Positions 5,900 to 13,795 of a DNA stretch of 26,300 bases are shown in pieces (the stretch's first letter is position 1; every line of letters starts with the position of its first letter). The position numbers and the translations under genes are program-made. Under the pieces are notes generated by a model. The model was given only the letters and a program-made list of their open reading frames with translations. It was not told the DNA's origin and ran no database searches. Source of the stretch: Candidatus Vampirococcus lugosii (GTDB lineage Bacteria > Patescibacteriota > Gracilibacteria > Absconditabacterales > Absconditicoccaceae). The DNA lies in assembly GCF_018420025.1 (NCBI RefSeq), contig NZ_JAEDAM010000005.1, positions 1-26,300 on the forward strand, in the 5' to 3' direction.

Positions 5900-8017
5900 A
5901 TGATAAATAAATTACAAATAAATGAAATTTCAAAAAGTATATTGTGGGAATGAAAACAATTTGAAATAAAAACTTGAAAACTTGCAAGTCAAGCTGATGG
6001 ATCGGTTGTAGTTAAAATATGAGATACTTCCGTTTTGGCGACAGCAGTAATAAATAAAAATCCAGATGAAAATAAAGATTTTATGCCACTAACTATAGAT
6101 TGTAGAGAATCTTTTTATGCTGGTGGTAAAATTTGATGAGCTCTTTATATAAGAAGAGAATGAAGACCATCCGAACAAACTATACTTACAGCTCGTCTTA
6201 CTGATAGACCTATAAGACCTATGTTTCCAGAATGAATGATAAATGATGTAGTAATTGCAATTACTCCTTTGAGTGTAGATAAAGAAAATTGAATATGAAT
6301 TCCTAGTATTATTTGAGCAAGTTTAGCAATAAATTTAGCTTGAATACCTTTTGAATCTGAAGTTTGAGCTGTAAAAATTTGATATAAAGATTGAAATTAT
6401 ATAATAAATCCAACTTATCAAGAAGTAAAAGAATGAATATTAGAACTTACATTAGCTTGAACAAAAGATGCAATTACAATGGTAGAATGTTCTGCAAATG
6501 AAGTTTGTGATGAAATATTATTGGAAGCTTTTAGAATATGACAAGAAGAAATAAGAAAAAATTGCGAATTACAAAATGAATTTTTGAAAAATTTTGAAAT
6601 AGAAAAAAAAGAAATAATAACTAATAAACCTAGTAAAGAACTTATTGAAAAAATAGAAAACTGTTTAAAAATTGAAGAATTAAATAAATTAATACCATCT
6701 AGCAAAAAAGAATTTAATAATCAATCAGAAATTATAAAAAATATAATATTTGAAAATTTTAAAAATGAATTGGAAGATGAAAATAATAAAGAAATAACAA
6801 AAATTAAATTATGATCTTGAGTTTTTAAAGTTATAAAAAATTTTATTAGAAAAAAAATACTAGAAGAAGAAAAAAGAGTTGATTGAAGAAAACTTGATCA
6901 AATAAGACCTCTATATTGTGAAACTTGATTATGAAATAATAGAATTCATTGAATATGACTTTTTCAAAGATGAGAAACACAAGTTTTCAGTGCAACTACA
7001 TTATGAGCACCTTGAGATATTTTATTAGTAGATGATATGGAATCTGATGCTATAGAACAAAGATTTATGCATCATTACAATATGCCTTGATTTAGTACAA
7101 ATGAAGCAAAATCATCAAGATGAGCTAGTAGAAGAGAAATTTGACATTGAAAATTAGCAGAAAAAGCATTGGAAGCAATGATACCAAGTGAAGAAGATTT
7201 TCCTTATACATTAAGAGTAGTTAGTGAAGTTTTCAGTTGTAATTGAAGTACATCTATGGCAAGTGTATGTGCAACTACCCTATCATTGATGGATGCATGA
7301 GTTCCTATCAAAAATCCTGTAAGTTGAATAGCAATGTGATTAATTACTGATTGAGAAAAATTTAAAATTTTGACTGATATACAGTGAGTAGAAGATTTTA
7401 CATGAGATATGGATTTTAAAGTTGCTTGAACTAAAAATTGAATTACTGCTCTACAAATGGATATGAAAATAAAATGATTAAGTTTGGAAATAATAAAACA
7501 AGCAATACAAAAAGCAAATACTGCAAGATTAGATATTTTGGATTTTATGTTGCAAACTATTGATAAACCAAATGAAGAATTAAGTATTTATGCACCCAAA
7601 ATTACAAAAATAAAACTTAAAGCTAGTCAAATTAGAGAAGTTATATGATCAGGTTGAGCAAATATTAATGAAATCACAAAAGAAACTTGAGTTAAAATAG
7701 ATTTTAAAGAAGATTGAACAACAATAATTACTGCAAAAGACACAAAATCTTGAGAAGAAGCTATTAAAATGATACAAGAAAGTATATGGTCTCCTGAAAT
7801 ATGACAAATCATAGAATGAAAAATCACTAGAATAGAACAATATTGATTATTTGTTGATATTGGAAAAAATAAATCATGATTATGTCATGTAAAAAATATT
7901 TGAAAATCTTTTGTAAGTGATCTAAAAACTATGTACAAAGAATGACAAAAAATTAGAGTTAAAATTATATGAATTGATGATAATAATGGTAAAATTGACC
8001 TTAGAAAAGAGGATTAA
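5900..8017 (+). CDS. pnp: Polyribonucleotide nucleotidyltransferase (PNPase), 705 aa
   Basis: ATG at 5900, TAA at 8015-8017. With TGA=Gly the translation gives [104 protein letters not shown], and a C-terminal KH/S1 region (GSGGANINEI..; [16 protein letters not shown]). Confidence 0.95.
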
Positions 8018-8359: not shown

Positions 8360-8908
8360 ATGAAAAAAATATTTTTATATATAATCTTATTATCTTTACC
8401 TTTTTTGACATGATGTTTTGAGTCTGAAAATAATCAAACAGTAGAATTTGATTGATTTGTTATGGAAATAAATGAACATTTCATCCCTATATCAAGTGGA
8501 ACATTTGATTGACAACAAATACAAAATAAAATAATAGCAAGTTACAAAATTGATAGTCTTGAAGACATATACAAAGATAATTTAATAATAAGTAAAAATA
8601 AATTAAATAATAAAATAGATCTGGAAACATATACACAAGCAAATTATAATAAATTAAATAAATGAATTACAACATTAAATAGTATAGAAAACATAAAAAA
8701 ACTTGATTTTGAATGTAAAAATGATAAAATAGATTGATATTATTCAAAATATGAAGTATATGATTCTATTTTTGATGAAGATACAAAATATTATATATTA
8801 CAATATTATTTTATAAAAGATGATAATTGATATATATTATCTTTTAGTTCATGAGAAGATAGATTCTCAGAATTTATAAAAAATATTTGAACAATTTCTT
8901 GTAATTAA
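8360..8908 (+). CDS. Lipoprotein, 182 aa
   Basis: ATG at 8360, TAA at 8906-8908. The N-terminus MKKIFLYIILLSLPFLTGCFE has a lipobox L-T-G-C, where the G is a TGA codon (8411-8413). Confidence 0.75.
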
Positions 8909-11200: not shown

Positions 11201-11677
11201 ATGTTTAAATTGGTTTTATGAAATTTAATAAAGGTTATTAAATCACCTTTTCCTATGTTTTTATGAATTATTGCTTGAATTACAATATACTTTGTAATTA
11301 ATCATTTTATGGATTATATGCATATATTGGGAAATCAATGATTGCTTTATGCAAATATTGAATATTATTGAAATTATGTAATAGCAGTATTATTTGGGTT
11401 AATTTTTGCTTCAAGTTCTTATAAAATATTTTATTTTGGTTCATTTAATGCAAAAGAAAATAGTTCAAGTATATTATGAAGTTTCTTAAGTCTTATATCA
11501 ATATGATGTCCAGCTTGTTGAATTACTATCGCTTCATATATTTGACTATCATGATTAATATTATCTCTTCCATACTCTTGAATTGAATTGAAAATATTAT
11601 GAATATTAATTATGTTAATATCATTATTTTTTACATTAAAAAATCTAGAAGTTTGCAAAATGAAGAAAAAGAAATAA
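11201..11677 (+). CDS. Membrane protein with intramembrane CPAC (CxxC) motif, 158 aa
   Basis: ATG at 11201, TAA at 11675-11677. It has four hydrophobic segments, with SLISIGCPACGITIASYIGL in the third. The antisense standard-code ORF 11431-11658 is an artefact. Confidence 0.7.
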
Positions 11678-11725: not shown

Positions 11726-11760
11726 GATAACAATCAAGATAAAGATTGTTATTTTTTTAT
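11726..11760. terminator. Hairpin terminator shared by convergent genes
   Basis: 9-bp stem (ataacaatc 11727-11735 / gattgttat 11744-11752) followed by T7. It lies 50 nt after the + strand stop at 11677 and overlaps the minus-strand stop codon at 11749-11751. Confidence 0.55.
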
Positions 11761-12705
11761 AAATTCTTCATATAAAATATATAATATAGCAAAACTTAAA
11801 TACATATCTGCAAAATTAAATATCGGGAAATCTAATATAGAAATAAAATCCCTTACTCCACCAAGATAAAGTCTATCAATTAAATTTCATATAGTACCAG
11901 CAAATAAAAGAACAAAAATAAAACTAGAAATCCAATTTTTTTTAAGTAAAAATATAAAAAATATTGTACTAAAAAAAGTTAAAAAATAAACTATACTATA
12001 ATTAACGGATATTCACCAAGATATTCATTCATTAAATGCTTGTTTTATGAAAGGCAAAAATTGAAAATATCACAAATCATAAAAAATATATTTTGTAAAT
12101 AAATCTAAAATTACCAATAAAAAAATAAATATAATACTATAACAAATAGGAATATATTCTATTTTTCTTTTAATATACAAATAAATTTCTTTAATAGATT
12201 TCAATTTTCATATTTTTTTTAAATCGTCTATATCTAAATATTTTTGATTTTTTAGCCATTGGGAAAATGATCTCATATTTTTTCAAGTAAAATCTCATAT
12301 AGTTCATCTTTCAAAATCTATAATATTAATATTATTTTTTTTATCTACCAAAATATTTGAAAAAGGTCTTATCATTTCACCATGAATTACTCATAATTTA
12401 TCCAAAATATAAATTTTTTGCAATAAAGATTTAATTAATTTCTTTTTCTTAAAATTAGTTGATTTATCAAATATTTTATCAAAAGACTCCCCTTCAATAT
12501 ATTGATATTCAAAATAATTTTCTCAAATAGATTCTATTTGTGGAACAAATTTTATTCAATTATTATTTAATTTCTTTATTATATCTATTTCTTTTAATAT
12601 ACTTGCTTTTTTAGTTTGATCTAAAGCAATTTTTTTTGCAATTTTTTTATTTCATTTTTCATAAATATAAACTTCTCATCTTCGTCATTGTCATATTTTT
12701 TCCAT
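11749..12705 (-). CDS. lspA: Fusion protein: atypical small protein-kinase-like domain (Bud32/RIO/COG2112-like) + lipoprotein signal peptidase II, 318 aa
   Basis: A single uninterrupted frame runs from ATG 12705 to TAA 11749-11751 (957 nt). N-terminal half: MEKIGQGRRGEVYIYEKGNKKIAKKI...GVIHGEMIRPFSNILVDKKNNINIIDFERG. C-terminal half: ..IIFIFLLVILDLFTKYIF...GTIGNLIDRLYLGGVRDFISILDFPIFNFADMYL (the LspA motifs GN.iDR and FN.AD). Confidence 0.8.
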
Positions 12706-13029: not shown

Positions 13030-13230
13030 ATGAGTAAAAAACTTTTTACAGATAGTGAATCTTGTATATGATGTTGAGTATGTGTAGCTATTGCTCCAGA
13101 ATTTTTTGATTTTAATAAAAATTGAAAAGCATTTACTACTAATCAACCTGAAAATAAAGAACAATGGGATGAAGTAAAGAATGCATGTGATTCTTGTCCA
13201 GTTTCTGTTATTCATATTTCAAATGATTAA
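13030..13230 (+). CDS. Small ferredoxin, 66 aa
   Basis: Translation: MSKKLFTDSESCIGCGVCVAIAPEFFDFNKNGKAF...VKNACDSCPVSVIHISND*. It shows the C-x2-C-x2-C ... C-P cluster-binding pattern, with the first G of CIGCG encoded by TGA. Confidence 0.85.
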
Positions 13231-13330: not shown

Positions 13331-13795
13331 ATGAGCGAAAGAACACTGATTATTCTTAAACCTGATACAGTTACTAGATGATTGTTAGGTAAAGTTATTT
13401 CAAGATTTGAAGAAAAATGATTGAAATTAGTATGATGTAAAATGATTGAATTAAATAATGAAGTTTTGGAAAAACATTATGATCATCTAAAAGATAAACC
13501 ATTTTTTCCTTCAATAGTTTCATATATGACATCATCTCCAGTTTTGGTACAAGCTTGGGAATGAGTTGAAGCAGTTGATGTTGTGAGACTTATGATAGGT
13601 GTTACAAATTCAAGACAAGCACAACCTTGAACTGTAAGATGAGATTTTGCTATGAGTATAGGTAGAAATATAGTTCATGCATCAGAAGATATTGATGCGG
13701 CAAAAGTTGAGTTAGAAAGATTTTTTGATCAAAATGAATTATATTCTTATACTAGAGCAGATGAAGATAAAATTTATGAAGATGATGAAAAATAA
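13331..13795 (+). CDS. ndk: Nucleoside diphosphate kinase, 154 aa
   Basis: Translation: [38 protein letters not shown]...[35 protein letters not shown]...PGTVRGDFA...RNIVHASED. Confidence 0.95.

Follow-up and report, generated by a model that had tools for sequence, protein, structure and literature searches.

The DNA analysed here (the window) is a stretch of 26,300 nt from Candidatus Vampirococcus lugosii (contig NZ_JAEDAM010000005.1, positions 1 to 26,300). On its reverse strand, at 11749-12705, lies one gene in which a kinase and the lipoprotein signal peptidase LspA are fused in frame, a statement that we regard as virtually certain. A first-pass annotation, made from the letters alone, had described a single stop-free 957-nt frame at these positions, and this holds under genetic code 25 only. 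The motifs quoted there (GQGRRGEVY, AKKI, HGEMIRPFSNILV, IIDFERG, LDLFTK, GNLIDRL and FNFADM) are all present, and the proposed kinase-like module and complete LspA both matched Pfam models above threshold. Pkinase scored 41 bits (gathering threshold 31.7) over residues 2-132, covering model positions 5-143 of 263, while Peptidase_A8 (PF01252) scored 68.4 bits (gathering threshold 25) over residues 194-313, covering model positions 2-139 of 142.

An exhaustive representative search found about 45 full-length fused representatives of 50%-identity clusters (the fused representatives), so the fusion stands against the possibility that its orthologues are always two genes. An AlphaFold2 (AF2) model built on a 150-row alignment reached a predicted local distance difference test score (pLDDT) of 96.9 and a whole-chain predicted template modelling score (pTM) of 0.88; single-sequence AF2 gave a pLDDT of 45. 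The features of the gene, with the basis for each, are as follows.

11749-12705 (-): single coding sequence, 318 aa plus stop, ArkI-like kinase and LspA (code 25 translation).
12154-12705 (-): residues 1-184, cytoplasmic domain with the minimal eukaryotic protein kinase (ePK) fold, very probably of the ArkI/Ark1 family (AF2 model, profiles).
12670-12693 (-): Gly-rich (P-) loop G5-V12, GQGRRGEV, its three Gly encoded by TGA (translation).
12631-12633 (-): K25, the beta3 ATP-binding lysine, equivalent to TkArkI K51 (44/44 fused representatives; mapped through the 7VNX alignment).
12589-12591 (-): E39, the alphaC glutamate, equivalent to TkArkI E65 (44/44 fused representatives).
12355-12384 (-): catalytic loop H108-G-E110...N117, with HGE in place of HRD (H108, E110, P114 and N117 in 45/45).
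12307-12318 (-): metal-binding loop D130-F-E-R, with DFE in place of DFG (D130 in 45/45).
12259-12282 (-): subdomain-IX motif K142-N143-M-R-S-F-S-Q149, N143 being equivalent to TkArkI N160 (N143 and Q149 in 45/45).
12213-12220 (no strand): T8/A8 homopolymer, codons L162-K-K-I165 (sequence read).
12148-12195 (-): fusion joint, residues 171-186, comprising the last kinase helix, alpha7, and a basic juxtamembrane stretch into transmembrane helix 1 (TM1) (AF2).
11752-12147 (-): residues 187-318, LspA (signal peptidase II, Peptidase_A8), four TM helices and periplasmic beta elements (Pfam, structure).
11872-11889 (-): G273-N-L-I-D277-R, first catalytic Asp motif, G273 encoded by TGA (sequence, alignment).
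11806-11820 (-): F296-N-F-A-D300, second catalytic Asp motif (in 45/45; S. aureus and P. aeruginosa LspA have FNxAD at the aligned positions).

The reading frame depends on the genetic code. Table 11 was rejected because it breaks 11749-12705 (-) into fragments of 44 aa or fewer. Under table 25 the 957 nt give a 318-aa protein with 15 in-frame TGA codons read as Gly, and the whole window becomes densely coding. Table 4 was rejected because both domain scores fall, from 41.0 to 25.6 bits for Pkinase, which takes this match below the Pfam gathering threshold, and from 68.4 to 51.1 bits for Peptidase_A8. In LspA a TGA codon encodes the conserved Gly of GNxxDR, and others lie in the Gly-rich loop of the kinase. 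Outside the window, the same genome carries a tRNA(UCA) (C28:27332-27405 (-)) whose acceptor stem GCGGG/CCCGC and discriminator U are those of tRNA-Gly(UCC) (C24:370-443), and its tRNA-Trp (C26:6006-6080) has the anticodon CCA. A nearby lipoprotein gene (window 8360-8908) has a complete lipobox, LTGC, only if TGA is Gly. The domain scores, the TGA codons at conserved Gly positions, the tRNA(UCA) and the lipobox identify code 25 as the right code. The start codon, ATG at 12703-12705, aligned with the starts of the orthologues and is immediately preceded by an in-frame TAA. In public annotation the fused proteins are named only as 'signal peptidase II'; the kinase half is hidden there partly because translation under code 4 or code 11 puts the Pkinase match below the Pfam threshold.

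As judged from its sequence, the C-terminal half is a complete LspA and should be the working lipoprotein signal peptidase of the cell. It matched S. aureus LspA (6RYO) with an E-value of 2e-9, or 8e-20 when the full-length profile was used, and the alignment covers DxxTK, N225, GNxxDR, VRDF and FNxAD. Structural comparison with VIA-align gave a Z of 17.4 to 6RYP (root-mean-square deviation (rmsd) 2.8 Å over 139 aa, 32% identity) and 14.8 to 5DIR. In the AF2 model the LspA helices span residues 187-210, 236-255, 261-281 and 298-316 and the strands 220-225 and 284-289, all with pLDDT >90. The equivalog cut-off of TIGR00077 was not reached (55.5 against 73.95 bits), and the stand-alone LspAs of the family are equally divergent. 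D201, K205, N225, N274, D277, R278, D286, N297 and D300 are invariant in all 45 fused representatives; N274, D277 and R278 are also invariant in 59 stand-alone LspAs, and the Asp dyad is present in 58-59 of these. The fused protein is the sole PF01252 match in its own genome (92% complete), which also encodes Lgt (147.6 bits, contig C15). A pattern scan found 13 lipobox open reading frames (ORFs) genome-wide, of which one lies in the window. This is a 182-aa predicted lipoprotein (8360-8908 (+), lipobox L-T-G-C), a likely substrate of the fused LspA.

The N-terminal half very probably belongs to the ArkI/Ark1 family (COG2112/AQ578). ArkI is a COG2112/AQ578 kinase that places a 2'-phosphate on tRNA U47, and in it HRD is replaced by HGQ and DFG by DFE (PMC9095486). 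A profile of the window kinase domain aligned with stand-alone homologues from the representative search (A3) matched 8YV4/8YV5 in the PDB with an E-value of 9e-29 and TkArkI (7VNX) with 1e-14, ordinary kinases reaching 5e-9 or weaker. With a profile of the Absconditabacterial clade only (A4), 8YV4 was found at 3.4e-14 and the next match, DAPK1, at 9e-7. The outgroup profile (A5) gave 5.7e-33 for 8YV4 and 6.9e-20 for 7VNX, and hhalign aligned A4 to A5 with a probability of 100% and an E-value of 1.8e-45. The profile of the full-length fused proteins (A1) matched LspA and generic calmodulin-dependent (CaM) kinases in the PDB and did not retrieve Ark1 at E <= 1e-6. Foldseek with the AF2 model placed 8YV5, the RNA kinase Ark1 of Geoglobus acetivorans (GaArk1), first (TM-score normalised to target 0.79). 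Within its 184 aa the modelled domain comprises the N-lobe, the catalytic and metal-binding loops and two helices of the C-lobe. VIA-align of the kinase half to 8YV5 gave a Z of 19.7 (rmsd 2.0 Å over 164/173 residues), followed by TkArkI 7VNX at 16.5, RIO2 at 16.1, RIO1 at 15.0 and all others at 14.8 or less (Bud32 13.6). A literature search on 8YV4 and G. acetivorans Ark1 returned nothing relevant.

Support for a kinase fold came both from profiles (3.4e-14) and from the fold itself (Z 19.7 to 8YV5). Of the Bud32/RIO/COG2112-type relationship proposed in the first-pass annotation, the COG2112 part was confirmed by the ArkI/Ark1 profiles and fold, while the Bud32/RIO part failed on lower Z and on NCBIfam scores far below cut-off. 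Bud32 was rejected because its NCBIfam models scored 17-19 bits against cut-offs of 174-246 and its structural Z was below that of Ark1; RIO was rejected because RIO2 and RIO1 also lie below the 19.7 of Ark1. A Hanks-type Ser/Thr kinase was rejected because only half of the Pkinase model is covered, TM1 begins 57 residues past DFE and the catalytic loop carries a Glu. The organism's own genome yielded neither another Pkinase-like gene nor a Hanks-type kinase.

In the alignment to 7VNX, the residues K51, E65, H130, D149 and N160 of TkArkI are kept in the window protein as K25, E39, H108, D130 and N143. TkArkI Q132 corresponds to E110, and GaArk1 likewise has Glu at this position; the window motifs are HGE and DFE(R), those of GaArk1 KEE and DFER. 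The K51A substitution abolished the activity of TkArkI (PMC9095486). Two TkArkI residues are changed. K137 corresponds to S116, a position occupied by T in 21, K in 9, S in 8 and N in 4 of the 45 fused representatives; T162 corresponds to R145, which is R or K in 45/45, T being found in ArkI and dominant in the outgroup. None of the fused representatives (n=45) departs from K25, E39, D102, H108, E110, P114, N117, D130, N143 and Q149, and R9 and the Gly positions of the P-loop are kept in all 45, the Gly appearing as W or G in database translations. Because the catalytic sets of both the kinase and LspA are invariant in these proteins, both active sites are under strong constraint, and this conservation suggests that the two halves are probably both catalytically active.

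The fusion is old and arose within one sub-clade of the Absconditabacterales (SR1). Eleven full-length homologues (316-335 aa, 36-57% identity) aligned end to end, including WP_231180836.1 of Ca. Absconditicoccus praedator, which is annotated 'signal peptidase II'. A single open frame was seen in at least 12 genomes of about 10 genera, complete genomes included (G000, G138, G187, G114, G122, G222, G209, G225, G202, G203, G256 and G201; also G237, where it is cut by the contig end). Among 121 sampled genomes of the family to which the window belongs, the kinase module was found in 22, leaving out two marginal matches, and 97 had no match to the kinase query; LspA without the kinase was seen in family members searched for LspA. 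The module was not confidently found in 179 other sampled genomes of the class, where LspA is almost universal. No LspA-kinase or LspA-ArkI fusion was described in the literature searched (full text).

Other arrangements of the two genes were seen when fetched loci were translated with code 25. Three genomes of genus g150 have the kinase and lspA as two genes with an 8-nt overlap (L024:1501-2491 in genome G231; also L026 and L027). The split falls exactly at the fusion joint: the kinase, of 194 aa, ends just past alpha7 and the LspA, of 137 aa, begins at TM1. The g150 lspA frame is open for ~70 codons upstream of its own ATG. In g170 and g16 a stand-alone kinase of 176-177 aa lies among unrelated neighbours and keeps all catalytic residues. 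In G226 and G200 an LspA of 138-142 aa is on a contig other than that of the stand-alone kinase, and in G249, which also has the stand-alone kinase, no LspA was found. In a maximum-likelihood tree of kinase domains the Absconditabacterial sequences formed one clade (100/99), and the g150 split forms were nested among the fused forms (97/97). The g150 case is therefore a fission, and looks recent, as if a frameshift in the linker had split the gene while its two parts stayed translationally coupled. Placement of the g170 and g16 kinases outside or inside the fused clade was not separated by the approximately unbiased test (p 0.35), and these unlinked kinases may either predate the fusion or result from fission. 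The module also occurs in another fusion: P0016, P0098 and P0120 (also P0129, P0142, P0157 and P0169) are proteins of ~390-415 aa from another lineage in which an archaeal-type MTQ2/HemK2 (NPPY) methyltransferase is followed by a C-terminal ArkI-like kinase, an architecture likewise undescribed.

Within the window the kinase-LspA gene is monocistronic. Downstream lies a convergent gene for a 158-aa membrane protein (11201-11677 (+)). Upstream, across a 324-nt AT-rich spacer, are a divergent 66-aa single-cluster ferredoxin-like ORF (13030-13230 (+), CIGCGVC ... CDSCP) and then ndk (13331-13795 (+)). With pnp at 5900-8017 (+), both pnp and ndk are within 6 kb of the fused gene, and their proximity to an RNA-kinase-like gene is probably a coincidence. 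Scans of the window gave no Rfam match, no tRNA and no terminator, and promoter-like sites were not commoner in it than in shuffles.

The reading that we favour, with a probability of about 0.5, is that a single chain carries two enzymes that work independently, LspA and an ArkI-like kinase tethered to the membrane. One code-25 gene would then specify a two-enzyme membrane protein. Its C-terminal 130 residues would be an LspA with the Asp dyad intact that cleaves the prolipoproteins made by Lgt, and its N-terminal ~185 residues would form a cytoplasmic ArkI/Ark1-family kinase, presumably an active ATP-dependent phosphotransferase, whose last helix runs into LspA TM1. The fusion most likely arose when genes lying side by side in a tightly packed genome merged, and may simply tether the kinase to the membrane. 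Such a merger is plausible because transcripts of lspA often include genes for translation or RNA modification (ileS, rluD), and the existence of the MTQ2/HemK2 fusions shows that the ArkI-like module fuses readily.

That the two halves function independently seems to us a little better than an even bet. The AF2 helices at the joint, 171-183 and 187-210, are joined by sequence of low conservation whose length varies in other genera. Across the clade the spacing from DFER to DxxTK ranges from 71 to 124 residues, with 71 in the window's own subclade, so that this poorly conserved linker differs by >50 aa. Comparison of fused with stand-alone LspAs found no fusion-specific conserved positions in the cytoplasmic loop or tail. 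Independence is favoured by this variable linker together with the lack of fusion-specific residues in LspA, and is further supported because the unlinked stand-alone kinases keep their catalytic residues and many family genomes have no kinase match.

What the kinase phosphorylates is the weakest step. RNA, in the form of the tRNA variable loop, is still the likeliest candidate, although the odds for tRNA fall somewhat short of even. In the organism's own genome U47 is present in 23/23 tRNAs with 5-nt variable loops and G46 in 20/23, and TrmB, TapT (DTW) and KptA/Tpt1 were not found in this genome (92% complete). Both m7G46 and acp3U47 block ArkI (PMC9095486). Full-length TrmB is present in 30-32 of the 121 family genomes (16 genera) with 0 overlap with the 22 kinase-positive genomes, which may reflect either phylogenetic inertia or genuine mutual exclusion of the two at tRNA positions 46/47. 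The MTQ2/HemK2 fusions are compatible with this picture, again putting an ArkI-like module in a translation-related setting. The U47 counts, the absence of TrmB, TapT and KptA and the MTQ2 fusions are all compatible with a tRNA substrate, and none is proof.

Several points weigh against a membrane-tethered ArkI-like enzyme that is independent of LspA. Many family genomes have neither TrmB nor the kinase and the relatives are not independent, so the complementarity may be pure phylogeny. The equivalents of TkArkI K137 and T162 are altered (S116 and R145), and the YKR motif was not placed with confidence, the hidden Markov model alignment to 7VNX stopping ahead of it. In its clade the kinase domain carries a net charge between -4 and +15, as against +9 to +24 in the outgroup; because it is not consistently basic, a conserved RNA-binding surface fits poorly. 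A basic K-R-K stretch lies ahead of TM1, but could reflect the positive-inside rule. Docking of tRNA near the ArkI alpha7 patch could be impeded by a helix that enters the membrane directly. The whole-chain pTM of the model may suggest a defined inter-domain packing, and a fusion kept over large divergence is a classical hint of functional linkage.

These last points lead to the main rival, functional coupling, which we consider unlikely. A repurposed kinase would sense ATP or phosphorylate LspA, the prolipoprotein n-region or a lipid or glycerol hydroxyl at the membrane, and lipoprotein processing would be tuned to the energy state or to host contact. The fusion is kept, and neither active site varies, in proteins as distant as about 30-35% identity; the whole-chain AF2 pTM is 0.88 with alpha7 continuous with TM1, and the genome has no second Pkinase-like gene. 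Residues typical of ArkI are lost, T162 being replaced by R/K and K137 varying, and in some members the charge is not basic. The Km of TkArkI for ATP is unusually high (1.2 mM), and possible ATP sensing was discussed by its authors (PMC9095486). Against coupling, a soluble stand-alone kinase unlinked to lspA is found in g170 and g16, the 97/121 family genomes have no kinase match with LspA alone in the members searched for it, neither length nor sequence of the linker is conserved, and conservation of the LspA cytoplasmic loop and tail is the same with and without the kinase. No ArkI-family member is known to act on proteins or lipids. The earlier suggestion that the kinase regulates lipoprotein maturation gained no positive evidence: the known substrate of the family is tRNA, sister genera have the two as separate genes that in some are unlinked, and the relatives with LspA but no kinase, the 71- to 124-residue linker and the absence of fusion-specific LspA positions weaken it further.

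A more speculative proposal, which we hold to be improbable, is that the kinase was recruited to the inner membrane face for a predatory lifestyle of scavenging host RNA and lipids. There it might protect or mark the cell's own tRNA, a 2'-phosphate making it resistant to nucleases and setting it apart from host RNA that is taken up, or it might phosphorylate a substrate of the membrane or the lipoprotein pathway and so tie LspA activity to the ATP supply. Up47, the modified nucleotide, confers nuclease resistance; the idea of tRNA protection rests on this, on pnp and ndk in the window and on a preprint about feeding on host RNA. In that preprint, Patescibacteria were proposed to feed in this way via PNPase, Ndk and related enzymes (bioRxiv 10.64898/2026.06.21.733656).

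It is very improbable that the N-terminal half is an inert appendage, that is, a pseudokinase or nucleotide-binding scaffold that only docks or stabilises, as in mycobacterial MviN. The domain is very small, has no activation segment, carries Glu rather than Asp at the position of the catalytic base and has lost the K137 equivalent in most fused members. However, Glu or Gln at that position is normal in active ArkI and Ark1 enzymes, and a P-loop, K25, E39, N117, D130 and N143 that are invariant in 45/45 divergent sequences would be unexpected for a dead site.

Least credible of all is an artefact or a pair of products, in which two genes seem to be joined because of a sequencing indel in the A8/T8 run, or translation from M144 gives a separate LspA: the homopolymer is close to the joint and g150 truly has two overlapping genes, but the same frame is found in at least 12 independent assemblies, complete genomes included, whose DNA at the joint differs, and M144 alternates with Leu in orthologues within the conserved kinase motif KN(M/L)(R/K), would put 43 kinase C-lobe residues on LspA and is unlike the g150 LspA start directly at TM1. 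Two details of the first-pass annotation need correction here, since the T8 run it gave at 12223-12230 is at 12213-12220, ten bases away, and the internal Met it placed about 70 codons before TM1 is about 43 codons from it; of the two alternatives that it raised, the homopolymer frameshift is rejected and the internal start is not a conserved feature.

The kinase-LspA protein combines two known families in a new domain architecture that a sub-clade of SR1 bacteria has conserved. For LspA, which is essential and a drug target, all descriptions in the literature searched, and all others known to us, are of a bare protease with four helices. ArkI, a kinase that stabilises tRNA, came to light in 2022 and is known mainly from thermophilic archaea. 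The present findings widen the range of this family to mesophilic, recoded, predatory bacteria within the Candidate Phyla Radiation (CPR), with the active site conserved and joined to the only LspA found. They raise the question of whether the kinase half still writes 2'-phosphates on tRNA or has gained a membrane-proximal role, for which the three natural layouts (fused, adjacent and coupled, unlinked) are ready-made controls. If true, the reading of a membrane-recruited kinase would give the ArkI family a role not seen before, and no regulated or bifunctional LspA would precede this one.

Comparison with known systems places the protein as follows. With RIO1/RIO2 and Bud32 the kinase half shares a truncated ePK fold without activation segment, and those kinases have RNA- or ribosome-linked functions and HGD-type catalytic loops; it differs in having neither the RIO flexible loop nor the winged-helix, in its catalytic-loop Glu rather than Asp, and in structural Z (13.5-16.1 for RIO/Bud32). 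The MTQ2/HemK2 fusions show the same small kinase module in one frame with an unrelated enzyme, but there the partner is a soluble methyltransferase of translation-factor/RNA type and is N-terminal, and the kinase falls in the outgroup clade nearer GaArk1. Mycobacterial MviN/MurJ, a polytopic envelope-biogenesis protein with a cytoplasmic ePK-fold pseudokinase, is what we take to be a parallel in architecture. Its pseudokinase is C-terminal, degenerate and Hanks-type, and is regulated by PknB and FhaA; the kinase of the fusion is N-terminal and ArkI-type with an intact active site, so the likeness is one of architectural logic only. ArkI/Ark1 (TkArkI TK2051, 7VNX; Geoglobus acetivorans Ark1, 8YV4/8YV5) shares with the kinase half the minimal ePK fold of ~170-220 aa without subdomains VIII and X, as well as H-G-(Q/E), DFE, the beta3 Lys, the alphaC Glu, the metal-binding Asp and the subdomain-IX Asn. 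Unlike these enzymes, the window kinase has a membrane protease joined to it and comes from a mesophilic CPR bacterium, and its basic charge is not clade-wide. Canonical LspA (S. aureus 6RYO/6RYP, P. aeruginosa 5DIR) shares with the C-terminal half the four TM helices, DxxTK, N, GNxxDR, VxDF, FNxAD and both Asp; it begins a few residues ahead of TM1, whereas the fused LspA bears a cytoplasmic N-terminal enzyme domain of ~185 aa.

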